This document shows, one piece after another, positions 8,679 to 64,000 of a DNA stretch of 64,000 nt. Under the pieces are notes generated by a model, which worked only from the letters and a program-made list of their open reading frames with translations, was not told the DNA's origin and did no database searches. This DNA comes from an uncultured Verrucomicrobiota bacterium (GTDB lineage Bacteria; Verrucomicrobiota; Kiritimatiellia; CAIKKV01; CAITUY01). Both the position numbers and the translations under genes were made by a program. Every line of letters starts with the position of its first letter. Positions within the stretch are counted from its first letter, which is position 1. Location: positions 22,582-86,581 of the forward strand of contig CAZTAJ010000002.1 of NCBI GenBank assembly GCA_964611575.1. Reading direction: 5' to 3'.

Positions 8679-8716
8679 GGTGTCTCCTATTCGTCCTGTC
8701 GCCGCGCCAGGCGCGG

Positions 8717-27951: not shown

Positions 27952-28108
27952 GGCCGCAGTATGTCCCGCCGCGAGGCGCGAGGCAAGCGGCGAGGGAGGA
28001 CGGAAGGTGGGAGGTGGGAGGGAGGCGGATGGCCGACTCGGTCCGCTTGACACGGCGGGAGAGGCTGAGACACAATCTTCACGCCGGAAGGGCGAAGGAA
28101 TCGAGACC

Positions 28109-31676: not shown

Positions 31677-31692
31677 GGGACGGAGGAGCACC

Positions 31693-48073: not shown

Positions 48074-48447
48074 GGCGACGACCAAGGCAGTGAATCGCGC
48101 CGCTCAGGACTTCGCCTCAGAGGAGTTCCACAGCAAAGCGATCCTGAAACAATAACGGCTCTGTTCGTGAGCGGACTGCAACGCGGCGATCACACTATTG
48201 CGGCGCGGGTGATTGTCGCAGGCGATGTCCTCGTGCGACAAACGCATCGCGGGGTAGCTTGCATGGCGAGCCCCGGAGCATGAAACGCTGCCTGATCGTT
48301 TTGGCGAATGGCTCGCTGACTGCTGTGGTCATGGGTTGCGCACAGCCATCCGTGTGATTCGTAAAGCAACGCGATGCAGAAGGCGTTATTCCGCGAGTCG
48401 CACCGCGTTGCCCTATTCATATTGCGAAAGTTCGCGTTGCATTCCGT

Positions 48448-49086
48448 TTAGAATACCGCGCGAACACTCACTAACACTCCGCCGGGGGTTACCTTTTCCT
48501 CCCTTGAGTATGAACGATAACCGTAATGATAGTCGTAATCACCAGAGTCCCGTTTCAGGGTAACTTCTGAGGAGTCATATCCGATTTCAGCCTGAATGCC
48601 GACTTTCTTTTTGCGCAAGAGTTCGACACCCACAGCAGCATATGCGCCGGGGGTGGAACCCTCCACGTTGTCCCCGCCGGCAAAGTGGTATTTAGCGCCA
48701 ATCCGAGCATAGGGCGATACGGATCCATGCGGGATAAAATTGAATCCGTATGAAAGCGCTGCAGGGACGTCCCAATAGAATGCGTCTGCTCCCCCGGTGA
48801 CGATCACAATCCCGGCAGGGCCGAGATCAAACCCGATCCGGGATCCATGGGCAAACTGGTAGTATGGAGTACAAGAGAGACCGATGGGAACAAAGCCACT
48901 CGCATCAGCCCCATACTCATCTTCATAAAAGCTAACAATATCCGAAAACCCCGAAATGTAGCTTATCCCGACCGGGAAACGCCACTGGGCGAAGTCGAAT
49001 TGAGCCACATTGTCGTCAGCTTGCGACAACACTCCAGCCAAGACAGCCACCACACACACGATGCCCAACAAAATTCTATTCCTCAT
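48448..49086 (-). CDS. Outer-membrane beta-barrel protein (OmpW/porin-like)
   Basis: It has a signal peptide MRNRILLGIVCVVAVLAGVLSQA, alternating amphipathic strands with aromatic residues, and a C-terminal Phe. Start trimmed to Met17 of the ORF. Confidence 0.6.
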   Translation of the reverse strand: MRNRILLGIVCVVAVLAGVLSQADDNVAQFDFAQWRFPVGISYISGFSDIVSFYEDEYGADASGFVPIGLSCTPYYQFAHGSRIGFDLGPAGIVIVTGGADAFYWDVPAALSYGFNFIPHGSVSPYARIGAKYHFAGGDNVEGSTPGAYAAVGVELLRKKKVGIQAEIGYDSSEVTLKRDSGDYDYHYGYRSYSREEKVTPGGVLVSVRAVF

Positions 49087-49495
49087 AGTATTCGATCCTT
49101 CTGCAAAACGTCCTCTTTGAGGCTCGCCCATCACTCTTCAGGTCAGTCCTGCCAAGCACAGTCTTGAATTGTGTTTCGATTCCACTCATTTTCTCAGGAG
49201 GAAAACGTCATACGTTACACCCCTTTCGCTTTGCTTGTTCTCGCCGCAGTGTCGAACCCATCTCGCTGAATTGCCCTATATCAAATATTCCGGGAGTGAC
49301 AAGAACATTGTTCTGGTTTTCGCATGGGGTTTTCGCTTGTCGGGCGTATCGGCGCTGTGACAGCATGGCAGTGTTGATGCTCCAACCGAGTCTTGGACTG
49401 GGCTTAGGGACGACGGCCCGATAATGGAGGCAGTTGCATGTTCCCGCTGGGTGCTGCAAAGGCGATCAAGGCGGCGCGTTCGATCATATGAATTC

Positions 49496-50947
49496 ATGAT
49501 GAATCTCGCTGACTTGCTGCAACATGCTGCCGCGCGATATCCCGAAAACATTGCGGTTTCGGATGGTGAGCGTGCGCTGACCTATGCAGAACTGTGGCAG
49601 GAGGTTTGCCGTGCCGCCGGGGAACTGGAGGCCGTGGGGATCGGTCGCGGCCGGATGGCGGGCCTTCAGTTGGGGAACAGCATTGCATTCATCATACTGA
49701 CCTATGCGTTGTGGCGCTGTGGGGCGGTGGTTGTCCCTATTCCCATGGAGATGCGGGAGTCGGAGAGAACCGAATTGCTCCGCACGATGGACTTGGCCGC
49801 CGTGTTGTCGAGTACGGCACCGGTGGGTGAGCACGCGACCGTGGCAATCGATGTCGCGGGCACAGCCATAACGGGCACCGTATTCCATAGGGGCAGCGCG
49901 CCGATCAGGGACAAGGTCAATGCCGCCATGGTGCGGTTCACATCAGGAACAACCAACGCCAACAAGGGGGTTGTGCTTTCTCACGAGGGCATACTGGAAC
50001 GCATCACGGCCGCGAACAATGCGTTGCATATTGGCCCGGGCGACACCGTAATGTGGTGCCTCCCCATGGCTCACCACTTCGTGGTTACGATCATCCAGTA
50101 CCTTTGGCAGGGGGCGAAAATCGTTCTCATCAGGAACACGGCAGGCCAACCCTTCCTTGATGCGATCATCGAGAACCGGGGCACAGTCTTGTACGCATCG
50201 CCGTTTCACTACGATGCGCTTTCACAAGACGCGTCGGGACGTGGGATCTCGTCTGTGCGCATGGCCATCTCAACGACCACGGCCCTTCCGGCCGATACGG
50301 CGCTCCGTTTCTTCGATCGGTACGGCCTGCACCTCATCCAAGCCTACGGAATCATTGAACTCGGGCTGGCTTGCGTCAATGTCGATGATCCGGCCGGCCG
50401 GCCGACATCGGTCGGGCAGCCGACCCCGGGATTCAGGTTGCGGCTTGCCAACGGAGAGCAGTACATCGGGCTTGGCGAGGGATGTGGCGAAATCGAGGTC
50501 TCCGGCCCCGGGTTCTTCGCGGCCTATTATCATCCGTGGGTTGCCGCCCGCGACGTCATGGATGGCCCGTGGTTTCACACTGGTGACGTGGGCAGAATCG
50601 ACAGCGACGGGTTCCTCTTCCTCTACAGTCGGGTCAACAGCGTCATCAATATCGCGGGAATGAAGGTTTTTCCGGAAGAAATTGAGCACGTACTGGACTC
50701 GCACGACTTCGTGAAGGAGTCGCGGGCCTACGCGGTGAAGCATGCCCACCTGGGGGAGGTCGTCCAGGCCGATGTTGTGCTGCGCCACGGCGTTGCAGCG
50801 GTGTCTGAGGATGACCTCCGAACGCATTGCGCGCAGCGACTCTCTTCTTTCAAGGTGCCGAACAGGATTCGATTCCTGGACGGCATTGACAGGACATCGA
50901 CCACCCTCAAGATCAAACGACACACAGCACCGGAGTCGGCCACTTGA
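49496..50947 (+). CDS. AMP-dependent synthetase/ligase (fatty-acyl or aryl-AMP ligase; ApeH-like starter-loading enzyme)
   Basis: It has an adenylation core A3-like motif FTSGTTNANKGVVLSH and an A8-like GWFHTGDVGRIDSDGFLFL. Start trimmed to MMNLADLL. Confidence 0.8.
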   Translation: MMNLADLLQHAAARYPENIAVSDGERALTYAELWQEVCRAAGELEAVGIGRGRMAGLQLGNSIAFIILTYALWRCGAVVVPIPMEMRESERTELLRTMDLAAVLSSTAPVGEHATVAIDVAGTAITGTVFHRGSAPIRDKVNAAMVRFTSGTTNANKGVVLSHEGILERITAANNALHIGPGDTVMWCLPMAHHFVVTIIQYLWQGAKIVLIRNTAGQPFLDAIIENRGTVLYASPFHYDALSQDASGRGISSVRMAISTTTALPADTALRFFDRYGLHLIQAYGIIELGLACVNVDDPAGRPTSVGQPTPGFRLRLANGEQYIGLGEGCGEIEVSGPGFFAAYYHPWVAARDVMDGPWFHTGDVGRIDSDGFLFLYSRVNSVINIAGMKVFPEEIEHVLDSHDFVKESRAYAVKHAHLGEVVQADVVLRHGVAAVSEDDLRTHCAQRLSSFKVPNRIRFLDGIDRTSTTLKIKRHTAPESAT

Positions 50948-51939
50948 GCGAACCGACGACAACAAGTGATGCCATTTCCTCCGTCGGCTCATCGGAGACG
51001 GTGCGGCGCGAGGCTGCGGCGGCGACCCAAGCCGCCTATCGATCATCCAAGTGGTCCGGAAAGACCAGGGGTGGATCCCTGGGCAACTGGTACTTCCTGC
51101 AAGTGATAAGGCTCCTGGGAATACGGGCGGCGTACGTTGCCCTTGTGCCCATCGCGGCATATTATCTGATTGCGAGTCCCCGGAGCGTAAAGAACTCCCG
51201 CCGTTATCTCCGGCGTGTGTTGGGGCCGAAGTCGTTCTGGCGATGGCCCTTCCTGGTATATGGTCACTTCTTCTCCTTGGGCATGAGTCTGCTTGACCGG
51301 TCCGCCATGCTGATGGGGCGCAAGGAGTTTACATGCACCTACGATGGAGAGGGCAGAATCGCGAACGCGCTTGCCTATGGGAAAGGCGTCATTCTAGTCA
51401 GCGCTCATGTCGGGAACTGGGCGGCCGGCGGGCATCTTCTCCGGCGTTTGAACACGCGCGTCAACATGGTGGCGCTGGAGAACGAGGTCAAGAGCATCCA
51501 GCGGATGTTTGACCGGGCATTTCCGGACAAGGGATTCGGGGTTCTCTCCTCCAGTCCCGATCTCACATCAAGCATGGCGATCATGGATGCCTTGCGGCGA
51601 GGGGAGATCGTGGCATTCAATGGCGACCGGACGGTTGAAGGCGCGGCCAGCGTAGAGACGACCTTTTTCGGGGACGTGGCCGATTTTCCGGTGGGTCCCT
51701 ACCTGCTGGCGTCGGTGACCGGGTCGCCGGTGATCCACGTTTTTGCCATGCGGGACGGGGTTGATCGGTATAGATTCTTCTGCTCGACAGCCAGGTTTGT
51801 CGAGAGGACTTCCAGGCAAAAGCGGCAGGAAGTGGTGAGGGCCGTTGCAGGGGGCTTTGCACACGATCTGGAAACGGTGCTCAGAAGGTATCCGTTCCAG
51901 TGGTACAATTTCTACCCGTTCTGGAAGAAGGAAACCTGA
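50944..51939 (+). CDS. Lipid A biosynthesis (LpxL/HtrB)-like lysophospholipid acyltransferase (ApeD-like)
   Basis: 331 aa in the LPLAT/HtrB family. Its start overlaps the upstream stop. Confidence 0.7.
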   Translation: MSEPTTTSDAISSVGSSETVRREAAAATQAAYRSSKWSGKTRGGSLGNWYFLQVIRLLGIRAAYVALVPIAAYYLIASPRSVKNSRRYLRRVLGPKSFWRWPFLVYGHFFSLGMSLLDRSAMLMGRKEFTCTYDGEGRIANALAYGKGVILVSAHVGNWAAGGHLLRRLNTRVNMVALENEVKSIQRMFDRAFPDKGFGVLSSSPDLTSSMAIMDALRRGEIVAFNGDRTVEGAASVETTFFGDVADFPVGPYLLASVTGSPVIHVFAMRDGVDRYRFFCSTARFVERTSRQKRQEVVRAVAGGFAHDLETVLRRYPFQWYNFYPFWKKET

Positions 51940-51972: not shown

Positions 51973-52395
51973 ATGGAATTGATGGACATCGAAGAGGTTA
52001 TACCGCATCGGCCGCCGATGCGGATGATCGATGCCTTGACGGAGTGGAGTGACGACTCCGCGAGCGGGGTCGTCGTCTTCGATGGAAATCACATGGCGGT
52101 GCATGACGGCCTGGTTGTTGAGTCGGCGCTTGTCGAATGCATTGCCCAGACAGTTGCCGCGATGGAGGGCGCCAAGCGGGTTGCCTGCGAAAGCCCGCGT
52201 GGTCCTGCCGGGGAGCAGGTGGGCATGCTGTGCGGGGTGTCTGATTTTGCTGTCGTCAGGCGGCCGCGAGCGGGGGATCGGTTGGAGATCCGGGTTCAAG
52301 TCCGCAAGAGGCTTGGACCGATGCTGCTTGCAGACGGCCAGGTCTTGTGTAATGGACACATCGCGGCTGCAGGATCGTTGAAACTTTCAGGCTAA
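51973..52395 (+). CDS. FabA/FabZ-like 3-hydroxyacyl-ACP dehydratase (hotdog fold)
   Basis: 140 aa. The N-terminus IPHRPPMRMID matches the FabZ-like IPHRxPxxxxD signature. Confidence 0.7.
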   Translation: MELMDIEEVIPHRPPMRMIDALTEWSDDSASGVVVFDGNHMAVHDGLVVESALVECIAQTVAAMEGAKRVACESPRGPAGEQVGMLCGVSDFAVVRRPRAGDRLEIRVQVRKRLGPMLLADGQVLCNGHIAAAGSLKLSG

Positions 52396-52413
52396 ACGCT
52401 TGGCGCAGAGCCC

Positions 52414-52908
52414 TTGGGAGACGACACAATGGGAGTCAGGAGAAAACGGAGGCGGCGCTCTATCGAGGAGGCCCGCAGCTATCTGTCCGAGGAGACGCAA
52501 GTGCGCGTGCGTTTCCATGAGGTGGATTCCATGCGTATTGTCTGGCATGGACACTATGTGACCTACTTCGAGGATGCGCGACGGGCCTTCGGACGTCGCT
52601 ACGGGCTCGACTATCCCGTCTTTCTTGAAAACAACATCGGCGCGCCGGTGGTGAGCGTGTGGGTCGATTTTCTCTCTCCGGCCTTGGGGAACGACCTGTT
52701 GGAGGTGGAGGCGCGCCTGTACAAGTCGGAAGGCGCCCAGCTCGAATTCAGCTACGAGGTGAAGCGCGCCCAAACGGGCGTTCTGCTCGCCAGCGGCGGC
52801 AGCGTGCAGGTGTTCACCACATTGAAGGGAGAATTGTTGCTGACTTGGCCGGCTCTGATGCTCGAGCGCTATGAGGCATGGAAAGACTTATGGATCCCCT
52901 CCGCTTGA
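52414..52908 (+). CDS. Acyl-CoA/acyl-ACP thioesterase (4HBT/YbgC-like hotdog)
   Basis: 164 aa with the motif FHEVDSMRIVWHGHYVTYFEDAR, typical of 4HBT thioesterases. Confidence 0.7.
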   Translation: MGDDTMGVRRKRRRRSIEEARSYLSEETQVRVRFHEVDSMRIVWHGHYVTYFEDARRAFGRRYGLDYPVFLENNIGAPVVSVWVDFLSPALGNDLLEVEARLYKSEGAQLEFSYEVKRAQTGVLLASGGSVQVFTTLKGELLLTWPALMLERYEAWKDLWIPSA

Positions 52909-54089
52909 AGGGAGCCGTGGCCGTTGCCGGCCTGGGGGTGGTGTCTGCCGCCGGAGACGGCGCCGACGCCACGTTGCTGTCCATTAAGGCAAACAGCGTG
53001 GAACTGCACGAGTGCGTCAGATATCGCGACGCCCTTTACATGACGAATCGCGTGGGGGCGGTGTCTGATCGCGTCTGGAGTTTGCTTGGCGGACCGGACG
53101 CCGGGCCCGCCGATTCCCGCACCTTTCAACTGGCGAATCGTGCGCTGGTCGAGGCGGTTCGGCAGGCGGGCCCGCAACTGGCCGATGTTGACGCCCAGCG
53201 AGTGGGCTTGGTGTTGTCCACGACCAAGGCCGAGATCGACGCGTTGGGTTCTCTCGTGGCCGGTGGCCATTGCAGTGACCGGTCGCGGCGGCATATCCTC
53301 GCGTCTCAACTCGCGGCTGACTTGGCTTCCGCCAACCACGCGTTCGGACCGCTTCAGTGTGTCTCCGTCGCCTGTATATCCGGTCTGCTGGCGATCCAGC
53401 AGGGGGTGCGGTTGATTCTTGCCGGCATCGCCGATGCGGTGCTCGTCGTTGGAGCCGACGTACTTTCGCACTTTGTCCTTGCGGGATTTAGCGCCTTGAA
53501 ATCTCTCGACCCTTGCGGATGCCGCCCCTTTGACAAGGATCGACAGGGCTTGAGCCTGGGCGAAGGCGCTGGCGCACTGGTGCTGGTTCGGTCAGATCTG
53601 GTTTCCGCTCCGCTGGCGACGATCACGGGATGGGGCGTTAGCAATGATGCCAATCATCTGACAGGTCCTTCCCGGGACGGCTCGGGACTGGCGCTCGCCA
53701 TTAAGCGAGCCTTGCGCATGGCCAACCGGACTCCCGACTCCATTGAGTATATCAACGCCCATGGAACCGGTACGGTCTACAACGACAGGATGGAAGCGCT
53801 GGCTTTCAGGACGGTCTTCGGTAGCCGCTCGCCTTGGGTCACCTCCTGCAAGGGATTGCTCGGGCACACGCTGGGAGCGGCCGGAGTTATCGAGAGCGCC
53901 ATCTGCATTCTGGCTGCCCGCGCTCAGGTCATGCCGGGGACGCCTGGATTCAGCCGTCCGGATGAGGAGGCTCCCGTTCGCGTGGCGGCCACCCCGCGGT
54001 GTTCGGTTTCCTACAGTCGAATCTTGAAGACCAACGCCGGGTTTGGCGGCACGAACAGCGCACTGGTTCTGGAGGTGCCCCCCCCATGA
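52890..54089 (+). CDS. Beta-ketoacyl-ACP synthase (KS, FabF-like; ApeO-like)
   Basis: It has the active-site Cys (SVACISGL), NAHGTGT and GHTLGAAG. The ORF starts at 52878 and is trimmed to MDPLRL. Confidence 0.85.
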   Translation: MDPLRLKGAVAVAGLGVVSAAGDGADATLLSIKANSVELHECVRYRDALYMTNRVGAVSDRVWSLLGGPDAGPADSRTFQLANRALVEAVRQAGPQLADVDAQRVGLVLSTTKAEIDALGSLVAGGHCSDRSRRHILASQLAADLASANHAFGPLQCVSVACISGLLAIQQGVRLILAGIADAVLVVGADVLSHFVLAGFSALKSLDPCGCRPFDKDRQGLSLGEGAGALVLVRSDLVSAPLATITGWGVSNDANHLTGPSRDGSGLALAIKRALRMANRTPDSIEYINAHGTGTVYNDRMEALAFRTVFGSRSPWVTSCKGLLGHTLGAAGVIESAICILAARAQVMPGTPGFSRPDEEAPVRVAATPRCSVSYSRILKTNAGFGGTNSALVLEVPPP

Positions 54090-54796
54090 CACGTGAAGTG
54101 ATTGCCGTTGCGGCCAGCTACATGACGCCCGAAGGCTACGGTAGCAGCGCCTTTGGCCGTCGTCCATGGAGGGATGGCCATGGGGAGCCGTGCGAACAAA
54201 AAGAGTTGATGGGCATACCCTGGTTGTCGCTGTTCTCGGTGCCGTGTCCTCGATTCGGCCGGATGTCCCCGCTCACCAGACTAGGTTTGATGGCGGTCGA
54301 ACTGCTCGACGTTGGCTTTGCCGATATGACTGAGGAGCAGAGGACGGACACAGGCCTCTGCATGCTCAGTCCTTTTGGGTCCATGGCGACGGACATCGAG
54401 TTCCTGAGGGAACCCGGCCCCGCCTCCTTCGCCTACACGCTGCCCAGTAGCGTGATCGGAGAGGTGTCCATACGACACCGGCTGCGGGGGCCCGGTCTGT
54501 GCCTGATGTCCGCGGGAAACACGGGGCGCAGCATTGTCGAAGAAGCATCGGAGCGGATCGCGATGGGGGAAGCCGAGTCCATGTTGTGCCTTTTCTGTGA
54601 CGCGCAGGGGGATGAGACTCGCGATCTCCTCAAGTATACACTTGATCGGGATGACAAGTTCTGCTGGTATGCCTACGCATTGTACCTTGTGCGGAAAGGC
54701 CCCGTTCCAGGCCCAGGCAAGACTGTCGCGGGAGGGGTGTTCGCATCCGGTACGGATATCTGTGGGATGTGTCTGGATCTGTGCGGGAATAAGTGA
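54086..54796 (+). CDS. Chain-length-factor-like small KS-fold protein (ApeC-like)
   Basis: About 236 aa with a KS N-terminal-like fold lacking the catalytic Cys. Its start overlaps the KS stop (ATGA), consistent with a KS/CLF heterodimer. Confidence 0.6.
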   Translation: MTREVIAVAASYMTPEGYGSSAFGRRPWRDGHGEPCEQKELMGIPWLSLFSVPCPRFGRMSPLTRLGLMAVELLDVGFADMTEEQRTDTGLCMLSPFGSMATDIEFLREPGPASFAYTLPSSVIGEVSIRHRLRGPGLCLMSAGNTGRSIVEEASERIAMGEAESMLCLFCDAQGDETRDLLKYTLDRDDKFCWYAYALYLVRKGPVPGPGKTVAGGVFASGTDICGMCLDLCGNK

Positions 54797-54866
54797 CGTA
54801 GGCCGGGAGATATGGCGTGTGGGGTCCGGTGGGTGCCTCACGTGATCGAACATTTGGAGATGGACC

Positions 54867-55130
54867 ATGTCGATTGAAGAACGAATAGAGGATCTCAAGG
54901 GCAAGATTATCGCGGCTCTTGACCTGGAAGACGTCACTCCCGAGGACATCGATCCGGATGCGCCGTTGTTCCAGGAGGGCCTGGGGCTCGACTCCATCGA
55001 CGCGCTGGAACTCGTGGTGATGCTCGAAAAGGAGTACGGAATCTCCGTCAAGGACATCGAGGTGACGAAGAAGGCGTTTGCATCGGTTCGAGCTCTGGCA
55101 ATCTTCATTGCGGAGAACCATGCTCCATGA
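54867..55130 (+). CDS. Acyl carrier protein
   Basis: 87 aa with the phosphopantetheine attachment motif GLDSIDALEL. Confidence 0.85.
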   Translation: MSIEERIEDLKGKIIAALDLEDVTPEDIDPDAPLFQEGLGLDSIDALELVVMLEKEYGISVKDIEVTKKAFASVRALAIFIAENHAP

Positions 55131-57544
55131 GCGAACGCGTTCCTGTCGTAACGGGAACCGGTGTCATTTGTTCCGTTGGCTGCGACAGTGAGAGTGTCTG
55201 GCAGTCCCTGATCAGGGGCAACTCCGGCCTTGCGCCCTTGACTCTCTTCCACTCCGCCCGCCACGGGCAGGCGCCGGTGGCCGAAGTGGTTGCCGACGTG
55301 GACCAGCTCTGCGGAAGTGCGATCAGGGGATCGCGTTCCGACAAACTTGCCTACATCGCTGTCCGGCAGGCATTGGCCGCCGCGGGCCTGGAAGAGGCCA
55401 TCGGCAGTTTCGGGAACCGCGCGGGTGTCGTGTTGGGGGCCACGGTTGGAGGGGTCCGGGGAACCGAACAATTTCTGGACAGCCTTCTACGCGGAAACGT
55501 CCGCAGGTACGGGCTGCTTCGTTATCACGAGTGCGCCGCTGCGACGGATTTGTGTGCAAAGGCTTTCCGGTGTTTCGGCCCGACAACGACCGTTTCGACC
55601 GCCTGTTCGGGCGGCGCCATGGCAATCGCCATGGCAGGGAGGCTTATCGAGAGCGGTGCTGCTGACATCATGATCGCCGGCGGATGCGATTCGCTATGCC
55701 GCCTGACGGTCAATGGCTTCGGTTCTCTCCTGTTGCTTGACCCCGAGGGGTGCCGGCCTTTCGACGTGAATCGAGCGGGAATCAGCCTTGGCGAGGGAGC
55801 GGCGGCGTTGGTCATCGAGAGTGCGCAATCAGCCGCCAGACGAGGGGTTCCGGTTCTTGCCGTCCTGTCAGGGTGGGGTTGCACCTGCGATGCATTTCAC
55901 GCGACCGCGCCTGACAGCAATGGTGACGGGGCGTACCGGGCCATGTCCGGGGCTCTCCGTCGAGCCGGCCTCGTGCCTGCCTCGATCAGCCACGTCAATG
56001 CGCACGGCACGGGCACTCCCGGCAATGACCTGGCCGAATCCAAGGCCATCAAACGGTTGTTCAGCGAAGTCATGCCCCCCGTACTTTCAACAAAGGGACT
56101 TCTGGGTCACACCCTGGCCGCCAGCGGCGCCATCGATTCCGTGATTTGTGTAAAGTCGATGGAACACGGGGGCCCGCCCAGGAGCCCGAGGTTTGAAGCC
56201 GTGGATCCCGACATCGGGTTTGAACCCGTGCGGAAGACTTCCGCAGAGCCTCAGTCTCATGTCATGAACAACGCTTTCGGATTTGGCGGCAACAACGTCT
56301 CGCTCGTCTTTTCTCGGGCGGTCGACGAGGCATCACATCCAATATCCATGGGTGGGGCGTCCTCGACGGTTCGGACGAGCCGGTTTTCGATTGCGGGCGT
56401 CGGGGTCGTTTCGCCCATGGGTAACACGGCGGAAAGCCTGTTTGTCGCCTGTTCCTCCGCGGGTGCGACGGCATCTCCGCGGGAGATTGATGCGCCGTTG
56501 CCGCTAAAACGAGTCCGCGTCTATTGCTGTTCCGACGACTTCGGCGCCAGGGAAGAAATTGCCGCCGGACGCCGTCGGAGACTGGAGCGGATTCAGTTGA
56601 TGACGCTGGTGGCCGCCAAGAGAAGCTGCCGAGGCCTGTCGCTGGAGGCTGTCGACGGAGAGCGGATCTGTGTGGCCATGGGAACCGGACTCGGCGCCGC
56701 CTCAGCTACGGCCGCCTTTGTCGAGCCCGTGGTGGCCGATGATAATGCCGCGCCGTCGCCGCAGAAATTCACCAATGCGGTGCACAATGCACTGGCATCG
56801 TCGGTGGCTATGGAAATCGCTGCTCGTGGCCTCAACTCCACCGTCACGCATCGCGAGATCTCATTTGAATCCGCCTTGTGGCATGGCACGCAGGAGATTG
56901 TCACGGGGAATTCGGACTACGCGATCGTGGGCGGAGCCGACGAACTGACTCCGTACTTGCTCAGCGCCGGCGCCCGCTGGGGTTGGTGGGATGAGAACAC
57001 CCTGCCACTCCGCCCTTTGTCAGCCAACTTGACTCGCCGACAGAGGGCAATGCCCGGGGAAGGCGCGGTGGTCTTCTGTCTGACCCGGAGCCGTGGCGAT
57101 CGCCCTGCGCTTGCCGAAGTGGCCTGCGTTTCTTTCGGCCGATTTGCCACGGACGAAGACGGGAAGATCGCTGCAGATCGGGAAGCCGGATGGATTGAGG
57201 CCGAACTTACGGGCCATGGCGTATCCCTAGCACAGATCGACATGGTCCTTACAGGGGCAAACGGGCTCCCGTCCCTTGACGACATGTACATTGCCGTCGT
57301 GGCAGCGCTCGGGCGGAGGGTGGGTAGGGACATCCGCCATGGCTGCTACAAGCATCTCTGCGGAGAATATCACACCGCATCCGCATTTGGGATGGCTATG
57401 GCGGTGGGCCTGGTATCAGAGAGCGTGTCTCCCGACTCGCTGCTTTCTGCTGGTGGCCGTTGCCGTGTGGTGCTCATCTACACTCTATCGGGCGATGGCA
57501 CGCGAGCCGTGGTATGTGTTACCCGGCCGGGAGCGATTCCATGA
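55127..57544 (+). CDS. KS fused to a C-terminal KS-like/CLF domain (didomain condensing enzyme)
   Basis: 805 aa. The N-terminal domain is a full KS (TACSGGA, NAHGTGTPGND, GHTLAASG). The C-terminal 380 aa or so is a second thiolase-fold domain without the catalytic triad. Confidence 0.8.
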   Translation: MSERVPVVTGTGVICSVGCDSESVWQSLIRGNSGLAPLTLFHSARHGQAPVAEVVADVDQLCGSAIRGSRSDKLAYIAVRQALAAAGLEEAIGSFGNRAGVVLGATVGGVRGTEQFLDSLLRGNVRRYGLLRYHECAAATDLCAKAFRCFGPTTTVSTACSGGAMAIAMAGRLIESGAADIMIAGGCDSLCRLTVNGFGSLLLLDPEGCRPFDVNRAGISLGEGAAALVIESAQSAARRGVPVLAVLSGWGCTCDAFHATAPDSNGDGAYRAMSGALRRAGLVPASISHVNAHGTGTPGNDLAESKAIKRLFSEVMPPVLSTKGLLGHTLAASGAIDSVICVKSMEHGGPPRSPRFEAVDPDIGFEPVRKTSAEPQSHVMNNAFGFGGNNVSLVFSRAVDEASHPISMGGASSTVRTSRFSIAGVGVVSPMGNTAESLFVACSSAGATASPREIDAPLPLKRVRVYCCSDDFGAREEIAAGRRRRLERIQLMTLVAAKRSCRGLSLEAVDGERICVAMGTGLGAASATAAFVEPVVADDNAAPSPQKFTNAVHNALASSVAMEIAARGLNSTVTHREISFESALWHGTQEIVTGNSDYAIVGGADELTPYLLSAGARWGWWDENTLPLRPLSANLTRRQRAMPGEGAVVFCLTRSRGDRPALAEVACVSFGRFATDEDGKIAADREAGWIEAELTGHGVSLAQIDMVLTGANGLPSLDDMYIAVVAALGRRVGRDIRHGCYKHLCGEYHTASAFGMAMAVGLVSESVSPDSLLSAGGRCRVVLIYTLSGDGTRAVVCVTRPGAIP

Positions 57545-57584
57545 GAAACGATCGACGCCTGAAGCGCAAGGGGGTACCACTCGG

Positions 57585-57980
57585 ATGAGGCCTTGCGTTG
57601 AACGATCCCTGCTGCGTTGCGAATGCGGAGATTCGACCGGGGAATTTTTCTTTTCGTTTTCGGCATCGGAAGGCACATTCAAGGGGCATTTTCCGAGGCA
57701 TCCGATTCTGCCGGGGGTGTTCCAACTGGAGATGGCCAAGTTTGCATGTGAACGGGTGACGGGCAGGCGTCTTGAGATTGAGAAGATCGAAAGAGCCAAG
57801 TTTTCCCGGCCGATCCTGCCGGAAGAAGAGATCCGTCTGTCGGTGAAGATTCAATCGGGTGAAGGCATTCTGCATGCCCAAGCGATTGTTTTTGTATCCA
57901 GCGAGCAGGCGGGAGGTGTCAGCCTGGTTCTGCGCAGCCGGGGGACTCGGGAGCGGGGGGCAGGCGGCTCAAACGCTTGA
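57585..57980 (+). CDS. Hotdog-fold dehydratase (FabA/FabZ-like; ApeP-like)
   Basis: The motif FKGHFPRHPILPGVFQLEMAKFA is characteristic of FabZ-like dehydratases. It is trimmed from ORF 57276-57980 to the first Met after the upstream stop. Confidence 0.6.
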   Translation: MRPCVERSLLRCECGDSTGEFFFSFSASEGTFKGHFPRHPILPGVFQLEMAKFACERVTGRRLEIEKIERAKFSRPILPEEEIRLSVKIQSGEGILHAQAIVFVSSEQAGGVSLVLRSRGTRERGAGGSNA

Positions 57981-58665: not shown

Positions 58666-59868
58666 ATGAATCGGGTTCTCATTTTTCCTAACACGCATAC
58701 GCTCTCCCACCTGGCCCGTGCCTTGGCTGTGGCGGACTGGCTGGATGGTGCGGGTTGGGAGAGCCATCTTGGAGTCTCGGCGTTGCGTTTGGAGTGGGCC
58801 GCACGGTTCCATTCCCGATGCCACGTTGTGTCGGAACTGTGGGAACCCTCGGGCACTCCGCACCCTTGCGTGAAGTGGTTCCATGATGCGAAGCACGTGA
58901 CGAGGTGCATCGATTCCCAGGAGCGGCTCATCCGCAGCATCTCCCCCTCCCTGATTGTCGGGATTTTTGATTTTCCCTCGGCCGTGAGCGCCGGCAACAT
59001 TCCCCGTCTCAGCATCAATGGCGGGTGCATGCTGCCGTTCTACCCAGGGGTGCTCGGATACGACGCGACTCCATCCTCTCAGCAGACGCTTCAGAAAACG
59101 GTGTTGGATCGCTTCTGGGCCTTCGCCGGACGAGCCTTTAACACCGCTCTGTGCGATCACAGACAGGAGCCAGTCGCGAGCGTGCTCGATCTCCTGGTGG
59201 GCGACGTGAATTTGATCTACGAAATCGACGAGATCTGTCGGCTCCCCAGCTTGTCACCCAACTATCACATGGTCGGTCCGATTGCCTGGGACGGGTGGGA
59301 AGTGATGGGTGAATGCGTATCTCCGTGGCGGAGGGATGACTCAAAACGGACTGTGTATCTCAACTGCGGATCGCTGGCAAGAAACGGACGGGTAAGGACG
59401 AGAATCATGGAGGCGTGCCTCCGGCAGTGCGACCGCCTGCTGGTCAGTACGGGTCTGAACGGTGGCGGGGATGTGAAGTCGGACCGGGTTCAGATCAGGC
59501 CGTTTCTTTCCCCGGCGGGCGCCACTGCCGTCGCTGACGTCGTGGTCTGCACGGGCGGGGTCGGCGCCTGTTACACCAACCTGTTGCATGGAGTTCCGTC
59601 CCTGGTGGTGCCAATGCAGCCCGAACAGGAAACGAACGGCATCAACTTGGAGCGAGCGGGATGCGGCAGGGTCCTGAGGGCGAACCTTGTCTTTCTTGGC
59701 GATCCGCGACAGTACGAAGAGTCGCTCGACTATGGATACTTGGAGGAAACACTGCACGAGATGCTGGCAACGCAAGACCTCGAACAGGGGTGCGAGCAGG
59801 TCCGGGAGCGGCTCTTGAAGTGCCGGACTCGCGAGGCGGTCATTGATCTTGCCGGGAGTCTGCAATGA
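58666..59868 (+). CDS. GT1-family (MGT/UDP-glycosyltransferase-like) glycosyltransferase
   Basis: 400 aa with a GT-B fold. The C-terminal nucleotide-sugar motif is VVCTGGVGACYTNLLHGVPSLVVPMQPEQETNG. Confidence 0.7.
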   Translation: MNRVLIFPNTHTLSHLARALAVADWLDGAGWESHLGVSALRLEWAARFHSRCHVVSELWEPSGTPHPCVKWFHDAKHVTRCIDSQERLIRSISPSLIVGIFDFPSAVSAGNIPRLSINGGCMLPFYPGVLGYDATPSSQQTLQKTVLDRFWAFAGRAFNTALCDHRQEPVASVLDLLVGDVNLIYEIDEICRLPSLSPNYHMVGPIAWDGWEVMGECVSPWRRDDSKRTVYLNCGSLARNGRVRTRIMEACLRQCDRLLVSTGLNGGGDVKSDRVQIRPFLSPAGATAVADVVVCTGGVGACYTNLLHGVPSLVVPMQPEQETNGINLERAGCGRVLRANLVFLGDPRQYEESLDYGYLEETLHEMLATQDLEQGCEQVRERLLKCRTREAVIDLAGSLQ

Positions 59869-61451
59869 AAGGACGGCTGAGAGCGTTTCTGGTGCATGGA
59901 ATGGGAAGCTCGCCGGGATGGTGGAATCCGCTCATCGCCCCGCTTCAGAGCCTGGGACTGGAACCCGCTGCACTGGAAATGCCTTCTCTTGAATCACACG
60001 GCCCGGCGGCATGGGTTGACGCGATTGTGCGGCACGCAGGCCACGCTCCAATCCTTCTGATCGGGCATTCGCTGGGTGCGGCCGTGTGCGTGGTGGCCTC
60101 TCGTCGAATCTCTTGTGTCGGGATCATCCTGCTGGCCTGTCCTCCGTTCTTCGATGACTACCGTCCGTCGCCTCCGGCGGGAACCGGCCTCTCCGTCCGC
60201 GCTGTGACAAGGGTTGGGATGTTCCTGCGCGATGCCGCGCGGGAATCGACTCTGGTGACAACGGATTCCATTCATTTCATCGGTGACGCCGACCCATTCA
60301 TCCCAGCGGAACAGGCGGCGCGCCTGCCCTTTCCCCTGATTGTGATCCCTTCCGCGGACCATGATCCGATGGACTCGATGCGCTTCATGAAAGCGCTGAT
60401 CGAGCACATCGTCAATTCGCGGTTCGGAAAACACTTCCTCGATCCTGCAGTCCGTGCGCCGTCGCGTCTCCGCGCGTCGGACACCCTTGGGGAGGCGATG
60501 GATTTGAATGAAGCCGCACCTCCCCCGGCTCGGATCGATCTGGAGATCACCACCCGCTGCCAGTGCGCCTGTCCGCGATGTGCCAGAACGCTGTTCCCGA
60601 CCTTGGCCCGACCCATGGATATGAGCCGGGTGTTCTTCGAACGAGTGATGGGCGAGTGCTCCGGAGCTGGCGAGATCATTTTCGTTGGGCTGGGCGAACC
60701 GCTGCTTCACCCTGATCTCCCCTTCTTCGTTTCCACGTGCGCGAGACTGCAGATGAACGTCAGTGTGGTCACCAACGGCCTGCTGGCGGAACCCGGTCTG
60801 GTGGAAACGCTATTTGAGGCCGGTCTTGGGGAGATCACGTTCAGCATCGATTCCACCGACCCCGAAAGGTTTCGGTCTCTGCGCGGAGGGGCCGATTTGC
60901 GGCGGGTTCTGGTCAATTTCCGTGCGGTGCGGGCAGGTCGGCATAAATCGATATTCGTGACGCTCTCCCAACAGAATGTGGGAGACCTGCGGGGATTGGT
61001 GGATCTCGCTGCGAGCGAGGGGCTGCGCGCCATTGCGGTCTCTGATGTGAACTTCCCGGAGAATGCCGACGAGTCCCTGCACCAAGCCCAAGCGGAGATG
61101 GATCTGGGTGCCGCCATCGCATACGCGCAGGAACGTAATGTTCTGCTCATTGACCCCAGGTTTCACAACACCGGAGATCCGCGGCGTCATCCTCTTCGTT
61201 GCACGGCAAGAAAGCCTGCGAACATTATGGGAAGATCCTGCCGCCATCGTCATTGCCTGGCCCCCTGGCGCATTGCGGTGGTGGGGGTGAATGGCGACCT
61301 GACGCCGTGCAATTGTGCGCCGAAGGCGGCGGTTGGCAGCCTTGCCCGTGGCTCGATGGCGGATGGATGGAACGGGCCAGACATGGCGAGATGGCGCAAG
61401 GCCGTCATGGGCGGCGAGTGCCAGTCGTGCTTGACCTGTCCCAGGTACTGA
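59865..61451 (+). CDS. Fusion of alpha/beta-hydrolase domain (GHSLG nucleophile elbow) and radical SAM-SPASM domain
   Basis: The N-terminal 190 aa or so have GHSLGA plus an Asp/His-bearing alpha/beta-hydrolase layout. Then comes a radical SAM CxxxCxxC (CQCACPRC). The C-terminal Cys cluster is C..C....C...C.C (SPASM/twitch-like). Confidence 0.75.
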   Translation: MKGRLRAFLVHGMGSSPGWWNPLIAPLQSLGLEPAALEMPSLESHGPAAWVDAIVRHAGHAPILLIGHSLGAAVCVVASRRISCVGIILLACPPFFDDYRPSPPAGTGLSVRAVTRVGMFLRDAARESTLVTTDSIHFIGDADPFIPAEQAARLPFPLIVIPSADHDPMDSMRFMKALIEHIVNSRFGKHFLDPAVRAPSRLRASDTLGEAMDLNEAAPPPARIDLEITTRCQCACPRCARTLFPTLARPMDMSRVFFERVMGECSGAGEIIFVGLGEPLLHPDLPFFVSTCARLQMNVSVVTNGLLAEPGLVETLFEAGLGEITFSIDSTDPERFRSLRGGADLRRVLVNFRAVRAGRHKSIFVTLSQQNVGDLRGLVDLAASEGLRAIAVSDVNFPENADESLHQAQAEMDLGAAIAYAQERNVLLIDPRFHNTGDPRRHPLRCTARKPANIMGRSCRHRHCLAPWRIAVVGVNGDLTPCNCAPKAAVGSLARGSMADGWNGPDMARWRKAVMGGECQSCLTCPRY

Positions 61452-61536: not shown

Positions 61537-62340
61537 ATGAGAACATTCCCTGATGCCGGTCACCCCGGACGCGTGCCCGCAGCGCCAGAAGAGCGGCTTC
61601 TTGTCACTTGGGTTCGCAGAATGGTGTTTGGTGTGGTGGGGCTGTGTTCCTATCCGAGTCTGGCCATCATCAACACACTGAAGATATCAGGGACGGAACA
61701 CCTCAGATGCCTGCCAAGGGAAAACGTCCTATTTGTCAGCAACCACCAAACCTACTTTGCCGATGTGATTGCCATTCTGCATATTCTTTGTGCCGTGAGA
61801 GTGGGGAAGACGCGTAGTTTGGGGATTCCGTACTACTTGCTCGCACCCTTTACCCGTGTCAACTATGTGGCATCTGAACAAACCATGAATGGCACTTGGA
61901 TCAGCCGCCTTTTTGCGGTGGCTGGGGCCGTGACGGTAAGAAGAACCTGGAACGCAGAAGCAAAGGAAACCCGCAAGGGCCTTGATCCATCGGATACTCG
62001 GAAGATCACCAGGGCACTTGCCCGGAACTGGGTGATTACTTTTCCCCAGGGAACCACCACACCATTTGCGCCGGGAAGAAGAGGAACGGCACTCATCATC
62101 AAACATAACAGACCCATCGTCATCCCTGTAATTATTGACGGATTTGGGAAAGCTTTCAACAAGACAGGCTTAAAACTCAGGAAGCCAGGAACAATCCTGA
62201 CGGTTCAGTTCAAAAAGGCATTGGATATAGATTATGGTGCCCGATCAGAAGACATGCTTGAGCAGATAATGGGCGCCATTGAGCAAAGCAAGGCGTATGC
62301 GATGCCAGAAGACACAGAACGGACGACGACTCATGAGTAG
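61537..62340 (+). CDS. 1-acyl-sn-glycerol-3-phosphate acyltransferase (PlsC/AGPAT-family)
   Basis: It has the NHQTYFAD (NHxxxxD) catalytic motif and FPQGTT (FPEGT-like) block. The start may be internal. Confidence 0.7.
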   Translation: MRTFPDAGHPGRVPAAPEERLLVTWVRRMVFGVVGLCSYPSLAIINTLKISGTEHLRCLPRENVLFVSNHQTYFADVIAILHILCAVRVGKTRSLGIPYYLLAPFTRVNYVASEQTMNGTWISRLFAVAGAVTVRRTWNAEAKETRKGLDPSDTRKITRALARNWVITFPQGTTTPFAPGRRGTALIIKHNRPIVIPVIIDGFGKAFNKTGLKLRKPGTILTVQFKKALDIDYGARSEDMLEQIMGAIEQSKAYAMPEDTERTTTHE

Positions 62341-62598
62341 AACATAGTTGCTGCGAACGACCGGGCTATGATGCAATATGCATTGGATTAATGGGCGAGA
62401 TCAAGGTCTGGCACGAAAGCAACGGCGCAATGTTCCCGCCAAGCGAAGGACACACCAACAGGACCGGGGGAACTCGCTGATCACACTCGGGAGCACTTCA
62501 TGTCGCAGCAGAAAGCATCGGACGTCGACCATCGAACACGGAATGCCAAAGGAAGGCGGATCCTCTGCCGCCACAGCGCCTCGCCTCGCTGTTGGATC

Positions 62599-63246
62599 AT
62601 GAATCTTCGATATGTGCCGCTGGCCGTTGTATTGCTGCTGCCAATGGCCCCGCTCTGCGCGGAAACGAATACCGCGTTGGCGGTGGAGCGGCTGCGAGGT
62701 ATACAGGAAAGGCTGAGTGCGGTTCGTACGGTGCAGGCGGATTTCGAGCAGGAGAAGGACCTCTCGCTGTTCAAGCAGAAGATCGTTATCGTGGGACGGA
62801 TCTACCTTGAGAACCCCGGTCGGTTCGCCTGGCACGCCGAGAAGCCGGTGCGCTATCGGCTCGTAATCAACGAGGATGATGTCCGGCAATGGGACGAGGA
62901 TACGCGCCAGGCACAGCGACTGCCTGTTGAGGGGAATCCTCTGTTCAAGATGGCGACGGGGCAGATGCGCGACTGCTTTGCCGGGCGTTACGAGGGGATG
63001 CTGAAGGAATGCGACATGACGGTGTCGGGCGTGTCCGCGCTGACGATTCGGTTTGTTCCAAAGCCAGCCGCCCTTACGGCGAAAGCGCTTCGGGCGTTGG
63101 AGGTGACGCTGCAGGGAGATGAGCGATATATTTCCTGCATTCGGTTTGAAGATCTCAACGGAGATGCCACGACGATTCGGTTCAAGAACGCAGTTCTGAA
63201 CGAAGCAATCGACCCCCGGGCCTGGGAGGTCACGCCGCGTGAGTAA
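62599..63246 (+). CDS. LolA-like outer-membrane lipoprotein carrier family protein (ApeM-like)
   Basis: It has signal peptide MNLRYVPLAVVLLLPMAPLCAE and a LolA/LolB-like beta-clam motif VQADFEQEK. Trimmed from ORF 62500. Confidence 0.6.
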   Translation: MNLRYVPLAVVLLLPMAPLCAETNTALAVERLRGIQERLSAVRTVQADFEQEKDLSLFKQKIVIVGRIYLENPGRFAWHAEKPVRYRLVINEDDVRQWDEDTRQAQRLPVEGNPLFKMATGQMRDCFAGRYEGMLKECDMTVSGVSALTIRFVPKPAALTAKALRALEVTLQGDERYISCIRFEDLNGDATTIRFKNAVLNEAIDPRAWEVTPRE

Positions 63247-64000
63247 GCATCCGTTTTTGGGCATCCACGAATTCTGCCGCTGCCATCGGTGGGGGTTGCT
63301 CATGGTCTCCGCAGTGATGACGTTGGCCGCCGGCGTCTCGCTGTGGTTCGTGCAGTACGATAAGACTCTGGATTCCATGCTTCCGGCACGCAGCTCGATC
63401 CCCCGAGTGATGGAGGTGCTTCGGGATGCACGCCTCTCGAATAAGATTGTGGTCAGCGTAGGCTCCGTCGTGGCGGGTGCCACGGCGCATGATGTCATGA
63501 TCGCGGCCGATCAACTGGCGACTTCGCTTGCGCAATCGCCGCTGATCAACCAAGCCACGGCGGATTTCACGCGCATGGCGTCCGTCGACGATATGGCCCT
63601 GTTCTATCAGGCGGCGCCCGAACTCCTGGGGGAAGAGGATGTCCGTGAGATGGGCGTTGCCGTGACGCCGGAAGGGGTGCGCGCCGCTCTCAGGCGGCGA
63701 TACGTGCAACTCATGAAGCCCGAGGGCAACTTCCTCGCTCCCTTGATCCGTGCCGACCCCCTCGATGTCCGCTGGCGGGTCGTGGAACGGCTGCAGGCCG
63801 CGATGTCCTCCTTTGGGTACGATGTCAACATGGTCGAGGGCCACCTCATGAGCCGGGACGGACGGCATTGCATGATTGTGGCCGAGACTCCGATTGCGCC
63901 GACCGACAATGTCGGAGCTATGGCCTTGGTGAAGATGTTGACCGCGAAGATCGGGTCGTTGCCGACAGGTTTCACGGCGGACACGATATGCGGTCACATG
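63239..64000 (+). CDS. MMPL/RND-family exporter, 5'-partial view (continues past window)
   Basis: Manual translation from the GTG at 63239 (alternative ATG at 63302) gives ...MVSAVMTLAAGVSLWFVQYDKTLDSMLP...., an N-terminal TM segment plus a periplasmic domain typical of MMPL/HpnN-like lipid exporters. There is no stop in the window. Its start overlaps the LolA-like stop. Confidence 0.55.
   Translation, partial: MSKHPFLGIHEFCRCHRWGLLMVSAVMTLAAGVSLWFVQYDKTLDSMLPARSSIPRVMEVLRDARLSNKIVVSVGSVVAGATAHDVMIAADQLATSLAQSPLINQATADFTRMASVDDMALFYQAAPELLGEEDVREMGVAVTPEGVRAALRRRYVQLMKPEGNFLAPLIRADPLDVRWRVVERLQAAMSSFGYDVNMVEGHLMSRDGRHCMIVAETPIAPTDNVGAMALVKMLTAKIGSLPTGFTADTICGHM

Follow-up and report, generated by a model that had tools for sequence, protein, structure and literature searches.

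Why would a bacterium join a serine hydrolase to a radical S-adenosylmethionine (SAM) enzyme in one polypeptide, and what might the product do inside a lipid cluster? The question is raised by a 64,000-nucleotide stretch of DNA from an uncultured Verrucomicrobiota bacterium (assembly GCA_964611575.1, contig CAZTAJ010000002.1, positions 22,582 to 86,581 of the forward strand), referred to here as the window. Comparative analysis showed that the hydrolase-radical SAM gene in this stretch is a genuine fusion and that, together with the glycosyltransferase (GT) gene directly upstream of it, it forms a portable two-gene module. Its C-terminal domain is predicted to be of the Twitch type.

The 528-amino acid (aa) fusion protein has three matches in Pfam, all of which exceed the gathering scores used as cutoffs: Abhydrolase_6 (residues 8-108, E 1e-9, 39.8 bits versus a cutoff of 26.3), Radical_SAM PF04055 (residues 227-381, E 1.2e-13, 52.1 bits versus 29.5) and SPASM (residues 464-525, E 3.3e-8, 34.1 bits versus 21.5). 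The N-terminal domain also matches the Ser_hydrolase family. An earlier note, made from the sequence alone, had described a hydrolase with a GHSLG elbow, a radical SAM domain with CQCACPRC and a C-terminal Cys cluster, and this architecture is borne out by the open reading frame (ORF), the Pfam matches and the motif positions (Table 1). The hydrolase domain contains a Ser-Asp-His triad in canonical order (Ser69-Asp143-His166) and an oxyanion motif at H11-G12. Across 42 aligned sequences, reaching down to ~25% identity, the invariant positions are H11-G12, G67, S69, G71, D143 and H166 in the hydrolase half; C232, C236, C239, GLGEPLLH (275-282), T303, S327, D329, R340, N396 and N400 in the radical SAM half; and C464, W468, G477, C482, C484, R511, C522, C525, P526 and R527 in the C-terminal domain. 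CX3CX2C is present in all 42, and the triad and HG motif are also invariant in a smaller alignment of 25 family members. As far as sequence can show, both halves look catalytically competent.

An AlphaFold2 (AF2) model built on 25 colinear homologues was confident in both domains (mean predicted local distance difference test score, pLDDT, 91.6; predicted template modeling score, pTM, 0.88), with pLDDT <50 solely at residues 204-206 of the inter-domain linker. The hydrolase strands and helices over residues 6-161 have pLDDT >90, and the radical SAM core shows alternating beta and alpha elements over residues 223-394 and matches many radical SAM structures with a Foldseek probability of 1.00. 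The motif, the PF04055 match and the partial TIM-barrel fold assign the protein to the radical SAM superfamily by prediction, and the elbow, triad, HG motif and fold likewise to the alpha/beta-hydrolase fold serine hydrolases.

The earlier note had allowed for a frameshift or assembly error that joined two genes. The join proved to be genuine. Contigs from the independent samples SRR12261224 and SRR21424287 and a 97-kb NCBI contig all code for exactly this 528-aa protein, and its three Pfam domains recur in 51 clusters of full-length, colinear homologues (524-584 aa, 37-88% identity). When one genome was scanned for each species, 78 loci were found, 9 of which encode the ~527-aa form (a Deltaproteobacteria metagenome-assembled genome (MAG), Verrucomicrobiia, Fibrobacterota, Chitinispirillaceae and Chitinivibrionales). 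Most matches that seemed to be radical SAM only proved to be ORFs of 580-610 aa for this fusion, whose hydrolase domain is somewhat larger in them; GHSTGG lies near residue 77, CX3CX2C near residue 283 and ...CPRF at the C-terminus. Sources of the longer form are Geobacteraceae, Holophaga, Propionivibrio soli, Accumulibacter, Thiobacillus, Nitrospirota, Thermodesulfovibrionia, Bacillota, Methylomirabilia, Elusimicrobia and others. A Propionivibrio-seeded search added 189 further clusters at 90% identity, named in the databases merely 'radical SAM protein' or 'alpha/beta fold hydrolase', and an exhaustive search of 1.84 billion representatives returned 69 with E <=1e-30, below which came generic SPASM/Twitch proteins at ~90-100 bits. 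The fusion family comprises about 250 clusters at 90% identity in at least 10 phyla, mostly of anaerobes. The fusion was called unusual in the earlier note, and in the sense of a rare locus this description does not hold. No curated NCBIfam family was reached by the fusion (TIGR04317, W_rSAM_matur, 93.2 bits versus a cutoff of 380; TIGR04311, rSAM_Geo_metal, 89.9 versus 400), and full-text literature searches returned no description of the fusion or of a GT-hydrolase-radical SAM module. Each domain is already known, and fused proteins are already public under generic names. What appears to be new is that a Twitch radical SAM enzyme is predicted to carry a catalytic serine hydrolase where peptide maturases have a recognition domain, and that it is locked to a GT1-family partner.

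Among 54 family loci, 48 are fused, 2 split and 2 frameshifted, and the remainder are cut by contig ends. The split orthologues, whose existence the earlier note had left to be checked, belong to Desulfosediminicola and Desulforhopalus (Desulfocapsaceae), in which the separate radical SAM protein has 376-379 aa and the hydrolase 221 aa. Desulfosediminicola flagellatus encodes, in order, the GT (7788-9164), a 221-aa hydrolase with GHSLGG (9161-9826) and a 379-aa radical SAM protein (9830-10969), and Desulforhopalus singaporensis has the same order of separate genes. This split clade amounts to ~13 clusters and is surrounded by fused relatives. Because adjacent genes are fused and split across the family, the two halves probably act together, a pattern that is classical evidence for a functional link. 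The frameshifted genes, in MAG loci L029 and L036, are fused genes with the hydrolase part in another frame than the radical SAM part. At L010 the hydrolase and radical SAM pieces lie 7 kb apart, probably through MAG misassembly. An apparent 965-aa GT-hydrolase-radical SAM triple fusion at L028 was rejected as an artefact of upstream ORF extension in GC-rich DNA; its database product has 580 aa (P0268).

The C-terminal cysteines had been labelled SPASM/twitch-like, and of this label the Twitch part stood and the SPASM part did not. A SPASM domain is defined by a seven-Cys motif, CX9-15GX4C-gap-CX2CX5CX3C-gap-C, that binds two clusters, and a Twitch domain is a truncated form that binds one (PMC6231123). 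The seven-Cys regular expression is absent from the fusion protein, in which CX2CX5CX3C is not present. The C-terminus holds CX12GX4C (C464...G477...C482) and a terminal CX2C (C522, C525) and ends 3 residues later. The invariant Cys of this domain number five: C464, C482, C484, C522 and C525. In the family profile alignment, which covers the core and the C-terminal part, C169/C187/C232/C235 of BtrN, the butirosin 2-deoxy-scyllo-inosamine dehydrogenase (4M7T/4M7S) that is the prototype of Twitch radical SAM enzymes, coincide with C464/C482/C522/C525, and in the AF2 model the beta-hairpin (E470-473/E478-480) and the helix at residues 505-515 are placed as the Twitch fold requires. Which Cys are conserved, how they align with BtrN and where the chain ends together rule out a full SPASM domain. 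The C-terminal domain is predicted to be of the Twitch type, with room for one auxiliary cluster and not two. Because the Cys pattern, the BtrN alignment and the model all identify it as Twitch, that single cluster should be fully Cys-ligated. The Pfam SPASM hidden Markov model still gives its score of 34.1 bits because it also covers Twitch-like halves; a Pfam 'SPASM' match implies neither two auxiliary clusters nor a peptide substrate.

Comparison with solved structures placed the radical SAM half near enzymes of several kinds. A profile search of the PDB aligned both the core and the Twitch domain with BtrN (1.3e-18), and PqqE was the best match for the core (8e-19). Foldseek neighbours included BlsE, SkfB, BtrN, SuiB, GDGT-MAS, PqqE, DesII, MoaA and anSME, with BlsE at the top (E 1.7e-12, TM 0.67 on target) and BtrN at 2.1e-10. 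The fusion shares with BtrN, whose own substrate is sugar-like, the core, the C-terminal Twitch domain and the GX4C hairpin motif. Unlike BtrN, to which it is ~18% identical, it has a hydrolase domain, the extra invariant C484 and a conserved ...CPR[YF] end, and it belongs to no BtrN family model. BlsE, a cytosylglucuronate decarboxylase (PDB 7VOB), and DesII act on sugar derivatives in natural-product pathways, and neither has a fused hydrolase or lies in a lipid-cluster context; with the BlsE model TIGR04466 (rSAM_BlsE) the fusion scores 30.9 bits versus a cutoff of 400. The SPASM maturases (PqqE, anSME, SuiB, CteB) and the Twitch sactisynthase SkfB share with the fusion a superfamily branch and the Pfam SPASM match. 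Unlike the SPASM maturases, the fusion is without the seven-Cys motif, the auxiliary cluster Aux II, a RiPP recognition element (RRE) and a conserved precursor peptide.

The hydrolase half resembles small serine hydrolases (RBBP9/YdeN, PF06821; Est30-type esterases; monoacylglycerol lipases; type II thioesterases) in its GxSxG elbow, triad, HG motif and ~190-aa fold. Est30 (1tqh) and monoacylglycerol lipases were found by Foldseek at E ~1e-7, together with ClbQ, and the combined profile and Foldseek matches included RBBP9, YdeN, Est30, monoacylglycerol lipases, ClbQ and the CurM thioesterase (TE). The similarity is weak (E 1e-5 or worse by sequence), and a substrate class is not readable from these matches. 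None of the small serine hydrolases compared is fused to a radical SAM domain.

The partner of the fusion was more informative about its setting. All cluster proteins of the window were compared by tblastn to all loci, and all neighbouring ORFs were clustered. A GT gene lies directly upstream of the fusion at every locus having upstream sequence (L001-L056) and is the sole invariant neighbour, an obligate partnership. In the window the GT stop codon overlaps the fusion start codon as ATGA, and such an overlap is usual at other loci. A profile of ten partner GTs matches GT1 enzymes (YjiC, OleD, the MGT family, UGTs and sterol glucosyltransferase), which glycosylate lipophilic small molecules. 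Less constant neighbours are a ketosynthase (KS; 33/54 loci, within 10 kb of the fusion), an LpxL/PatA-like acyltransferase (22/54) and a B12-radical SAM protein (19/54). The LpxL/PatA-like acyltransferase is thus a frequent third member of the module, and together with GT2 and polysaccharide deacetylase genes it represents the carbohydrate-handling functions that recur in the same clusters. The pair lies within aryl polyene (APE)/KS/acyltransferase clusters at about three quarters of the complete loci, often in clusters by which anaerobic bacteria would make membrane lipids that resemble pigments. By contrast, at L083 the GT and fusion stand alone between glycogen metabolism/dihydrofolate reductase (DHFR) genes and a response regulator, and at L084 they stand alone in an unrelated neighbourhood near PagL, in both cases with no KS or acyl carrier protein (ACP) gene within 10 kb. 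In Chitinispirillaceae (L079/L080), an acyltransferase-GT-fusion operon, with the acyltransferase directly upstream of the GT, lies among glycoside hydrolase genes, and L079 has no KS or ACP gene within 10 kb. Because the pair also occurs without KS, acyltransferase or B12-radical SAM neighbours, we conclude that it is a portable two-gene module, independent of dedicated fatty acid synthase (FAS) or polyketide synthase (PKS) genes.

Two of these neighbourhoods showed further features. In L084, a gene for a PagL-family lipid A deacylase (6792-7349) lies ~1.4 kb upstream of the pair on the same strand, and two unannotated genes on the opposite strand lie between them; this proximity may point to lipid A-like glycolipids as substrates. 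In L081 (7650-12930) and L082, the GT/fusion pair of a relative at ~50% identity is followed by a B12-KS fusion, an ACP and a GCV_T protein (folate-binding, aminomethyltransferase-like), with further genes for 4HBT, a ketoreductase (KR), malonyl-CoA:ACP transacylase and a FeeM-like N-acyl synthase fused to an aminotransferase (alpha-oxoamine synthase-like). Here the GT/fusion module is at the centre of another kind of lipid chemistry.

Table 1. Features of the window, in order of position; residue numbers are those of the fusion protein.
Feature	Coordinates	Strand	Basis or remark
B12-binding/radical SAM protein fused to a FabF-like KS and a KS-like (chain length factor (CLF)-like) domain	37860-41657	-	1264 aa
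B12-binding radical SAM gene	41726-43171	-	
DUF2229/HGD-D-like protein	43432-44607	+	
BcrAD_BadFG 'acyl-CoA dehydratase activase' ATPase	45540-46649	+	
B12-binding radical SAM gene	46613-48073	+	
LpxL/PatA-like acyltransferase (Lip_A_acyltrans)	50944..51939	+	PF03279 at 1.3e-17
APE-type type II PKS/FAS core	52049..57980	+	Pfam; precomputed Pfam annotations of identical locus L086
Complete KS and second KS-like half in one chain (KS/CLF-type pair)	55127-57544	+	805 aa; start overlaps ACP gene
GT1-family (GT-B) glycosyltransferase	58666..59868	+	~400 aa; Pfam Glyco_tran_28_C, EryCIII-like_C; GT profile matches
Hydrolase, radical SAM and predicted Twitch fusion gene	59865..61451	+	528 aa plus stop, ATG start
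Minimal alpha/beta-hydrolase domain, residues 1-192	59865..60440	+	Abhydrolase_6, Ser_hydrolase, invariant triad
Nucleophile elbow G67-H-S69-L-G71 (GHSLG, residues 67-71)	60063-60077	+	
Hydrolase D143	60291-60293	+	
Hydrolase H166	60360-60362	+	
Inter-domain linker, residues 193-220	60441..60524	+	Model confidence profile; variable-length alignment columns
Radical SAM core, residues 221-440	60525..61184	+	PF04055, invariant motifs, Foldseek
CQCACPRC, residues 232-239, containing C232-x3-C236-x2-C239	60558-60581	+	
SAM-binding motif G275-LGEPLLH282	60687-60710	+	
Predicted Twitch-type auxiliary Fe-S domain, residues 441-528, ends ...CPRY	61185..61448	+	BtrN alignment, model
Twitch-domain cysteines	C464 (61254), G477-x4-C482 (61308), C484 (61314), C522 (61428), C525 (61437)	+	
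PlsC/LPLAT-type acyltransferase (ApeD-like)	61621..62340	+	PF01553; start uncertain (61537 or 61621)
LolA-like carrier (ApeL-like)	62500..63246	+	PF03548 at 3.2e-12
N-terminus of 800-aa MMPL/RND-type exporter (ApeM-like)	63239..64000	+	Leaves window

The setting of the pair in the window appears to be an APE-type lipid cluster enriched in B12-radical SAM genes, in agreement with the lipid cluster that had been noted around the fusion. Like the APE clusters of E. coli and Xenorhabdus, it contains an acyl-AMP ligase, KS/CLF, ACP, ApeI- and ApeP-like dehydratases, 4HBT, LPLAT, LolA-like, MMPL and DUF3261 genes; among these, the LPLAT, LolA-like, MMPL, DUF3261 and thioesterase genes make up the part for attachment and export. 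Unlike them, it also has three B12-radical SAM genes (including the one fused to a KS), a BcrAD-type ATPase and an HGD-like protein, and the gene table of the E. coli APE cluster lists no radical SAM, alpha/beta-hydrolase or GT1 gene (PMC8253772). At L088, the GT and fusion are appended to an otherwise canonical APE-type set (MMPL, DUF3261, ApeP-like dehydratase, KR and three KS). The role of ApeD has been described and the attachment of the APE has been ascribed to acyltransferase and glycosyltransferase genes (PMC8253772), and the one structurally solved APE lipid is a polyene acyl chain ester-linked to O-6 of a GalNAc-phosphate-glycerolipid (bioRxiv 10.1101/2020.12.19.423268). Since this lipid has a sugar ester, sugar esters are bona fide intermediates and products of this cluster type.

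We tentatively favour, with somewhat less than even confidence, a bifunctional tailoring enzyme whose substrate would be the glycosylated lipid product of the partner GT, and which would both cleave or transfer an ester and carry out a radical oxidation or coupling. We infer its substrate, the order of its steps and the chemical outcome as follows. The GT would add a sugar to a lipophilic acceptor, which in the window would be the polyene or fatty-acyl lipid of the APE-type cluster. The radical SAM domain would then reductively cleave SAM at the C232/C236/C239 cluster and abstract a hydrogen atom from the glycosyl part or an adjoining atom. The Twitch cluster (C464/C482/C522/C525) would accept an electron from the substrate radical, so that the outcome would be oxidative, as a dehydrogenation or as C-C or C-O coupling; fully ligated auxiliary clusters have been proposed to oxidise the radical intermediate in BtrN and anSME (PMC6231123). 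Finally, the Ser69-Asp143-His166 domain would make or break an ester on the same molecule, either by de-O-acylation of the sugar or by acyl transfer to or from it, and the fusion would hand the intermediate from one active site to the other. Such a role is favoured by the nearest solved radical SAM relatives, which include sugar and cyclitol enzymes with Twitch domains (BlsE, BtrN and DesII).

Several points weigh against tailoring of a glycolipid. Similarity within the SPASM/Twitch group is not predictive of function (PMC6231123), and the peptide maturases SkfB, SuiB and PqqE reach Foldseek scores similar to those of the sugar enzymes. KS and ACP genes are nearby in 33/54 loci, so the substrate may be an acyl-ACP. 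The hydrolase domain resembles thioesterases about as weakly as it does esterases (ClbQ, CurM TE, PF00975). Moreover, C484 is a fifth invariant Cys, beyond the four BtrN-type ligands.

A stronger form of the tailoring proposal, to which we assign a distinctly low probability, is that the fusion could be the first radical SAM enzyme to exchange substrate with a covalently fused catalytic serine hydrolase, installing, together with its dedicated GT, a new radical-made linkage or oxidation at the sugar-lipid junction of polyene or fatty-acyl glycolipids in the outer membrane of anaerobes. The linkage could be a C-glycosidic bond, an ether bond or a carbocyclic head group. If true, such head-group chemistry would not depend on oxygen and would be akin to that of the cyclitol-ether or calditol head groups of hopanoid and archaeal lipids.

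The fusion might instead be directed at the acyl chain, with the hydrolase as a thioesterase or transacylase that takes the finished acyl or polyene chain from the ACP onto Ser69, and the radical SAM domain modifying the held or just-released chain by C-C coupling, desaturation or cyclisation before the GT glycosylates it. The frequency of KS genes near the fusion and of ACP, 4HBT and ApeI/ApeP-like dehydratases among its common neighbours is consistent with this order of events, as are weak Thioesterase (PF00975) matches in the window fusion and many family members, the ClbQ and CurM TE hits, and the presence of the lipid-acting radical SAM enzyme GDGT-MAS among the matches. However, L083, L084 and L079 have no ACP or KS near the pair, the invariant partner is a GT and not an ACP, the clusters already have a separate, ApeK-like 4HBT thioesterase, and the closest Twitch relatives that align over their full length act on polar, sugar-like substrates. 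We therefore regard a chain-directed enzyme as unlikely, at perhaps the level of a serious minority explanation. The earlier note had proposed that release or transfer of an acyl intermediate is coupled to radical chemistry; such coupling is possible, but the comparative data point elsewhere, in that the GT is the only invariant neighbour and the pair also occurs without KS and ACP genes.

It is also rather improbable that the GT and fusion form a self-contained small-molecule pathway to a modified sugar, glycoside or cofactor-like metabolite, one that has no relation to the lipid but would often be recruited into lipid clusters. Pairings of radical SAM and sugar-handling enzymes have precedents in antibiotic pathways (BlsE in blasticidin S, BtrN in butirosin), and the two-gene unit does stand alone in L083 and L084. 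This explanation is weakened by the roughly three quarters of complete loci in which the pair sits inside APE/KS/acyltransferase clusters, by the membership of the GT in the GT1 group, which typically uses lipophilic acceptors, and by the LpxL/PatA-like lipid acyltransferase as the next most frequent specific partner.

A role as maturase, with cross-linking or oxidation of a ribosomal peptide or of some partner protein, is very improbable. The Pfam SPASM match and the SkfB, SuiB, PqqE and anSME structural neighbours are what such an enzyme would be expected to show, and the best NCBIfam matches, TIGR04317 and TIGR04311, are putative metalloenzyme maturases, but their scores of 93 and 90 bits lie far under the cutoffs of 380 and 400. 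An RRE is absent, and in its place the N-terminus has a hydrolase with intact catalytic residues. The earlier note had seen no obvious precursor peptide, and none is conserved: when all ATG-starting ORFs of 20-90 aa in the flanks of ~50 loci were clustered, no small ORF recurred outside groups of <=5 loci confined to a clade, with ACP as one such group, and L084 leaves essentially no room for a precursor ORF.

A frameshift or misassembly that joined two genes has a negligible probability and is refuted for the window, since, although frameshifts do occur in the family (L029 and L036), the identical fused protein is found in independent assemblies, there are >200 colinear fused homologues, and the AF2 model is confident across both domains.

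The lipid cluster of the window is large and begins at ~37.8 kb, where the GC content drops from ~0.66 to 0.59. The first 38 kb, with a GC content of ~0.65-0.70, hold housekeeping genes (MetH, methylenetetrahydrofolate reductase, type II secretion/type IV pili, ABC exporters, TolC-like), and after a step at ~38000-40000 the GC content is ~0.56-0.62 across the lipid cluster. Because of this step at its edge, the cluster may be a horizontally acquired island. The PKS/FAS core contains an ApeP-like dehydratase, a 4HBT thioesterase, KS, KS-like, ACP, a KS plus KS-like fusion and an ApeI-like dehydratase. The acyl-AMP ligase gene precedes the LpxL/PatA-like acyltransferase gene, whose product has phosphatidylinositol mannoside acyltransferase as its best NCBIfam match, below cutoff. 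For a further protein of the cluster, of 191 aa, the translation reads as if the N-terminus were hydrophobic and like a signal peptide. The full exporter gene, complete in L086, matches PF03176 (MMPL) and is followed there by a DUF3261 (ApeN-like) gene and, beyond it, by a polysaccharide deacetylase and two more B12-radical SAM genes. The APE core has been listed as KS, CLF, ACP, ApeI and ApeP dehydratases, KR and an MMPL transporter (bioRxiv 10.1101/2020.12.19.423268); a KR (adh_short) gene was not seen in the window or the next 10 kb in L086, and no aryl-starter genes were identified.

The radical SAM complement of the cluster extends beyond the fusion. At least five B12-binding radical SAM genes lie in or beside it (including L086 18349-21052), one of which best matches the hopanoid C-3 methylase HpnR below threshold (229 bits versus a cutoff of 650). 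The B12-radical SAM-KS fusion has homologues at 60-67% identity that adjoin the GT/hydrolase-radical SAM pair in Verrucomicrobiia (L002, L004 and L010), and L081 has a 1251-aa version. This union of radical SAM and ketosynthase domains looks no less unusual than the hydrolase-radical SAM fusion. By analogy, the HGD-like and BcrAD pair is probably an ATP-driven ketyl-radical or reductase-type system, comparable to 2-hydroxyacyl-CoA dehydratase, benzoyl-CoA reductase and plasmalogen synthase.

A similar mix of genes, comprising FabF paralogues, ACP, dehydratase, radical SAM and B12 enzymes, acyl-CoA ligase and glycosyltransferase, is found in the 'ladderane-type' extended FASII clusters of Kuenenia, Desulfotalea, Geobacter and Pelobacter (Rattray et al. 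2009, PMC2649909). However, three homology searches and the genome scan found no anammox or Desulfotalea members of the fusion family, and a link to the 'ladderane' clusters of those organisms was rejected. With TIGR04072 (rSAM_ladder_B12), the B12-radical SAM proteins of the window score 48-87 bits versus a cutoff of 360.

Other observations in the window concern regions outside the module. Between the B12-radical SAM and acyl-AMP ligase genes, ~1.3 kb (48073-49424) contain no convincing gene; two small ORFs on the + strand (48847-49167 and 49164-49424) have no Pfam matches. A 1525-aa ORF (8717-13297, - strand) has no Pfam match at E <=1e-5, and around it, over 8-14 kb, the AT skew is strongly negative (-0.27 to -0.41). 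A gene at 31642-33519 (+ strand) encodes a homocysteine S-methyltransferase domain fused to a methylenetetrahydrofolate reductase domain, and immediately upstream of it lies a full-length gene for the B12-dependent methionine synthase MetH (27908-31492).

The GT1 and hydrolase-Twitch radical SAM genes form a compact, portable add-on common to Desulfobacterota, Geobacteraceae, Holophaga, Nitrospirota, Bacillota, Verrucomicrobiota, Fibrobacterota, Betaproteobacteria and others, with cultured hosts in Desulfosediminicola flagellatus, Desulforhopalus singaporensis and Propionivibrio soli. The existence of such an enzyme would not shock a radical SAM specialist. Its two-gene size suits heterologous expression and would make it an entry point to new anaerobic glycolipid chemistry, with a handle on that chemistry in a very widespread class of clusters, and the fusion offers a test case for the coupling of radical SAM enzymes with conventional hydrolytic catalysis.

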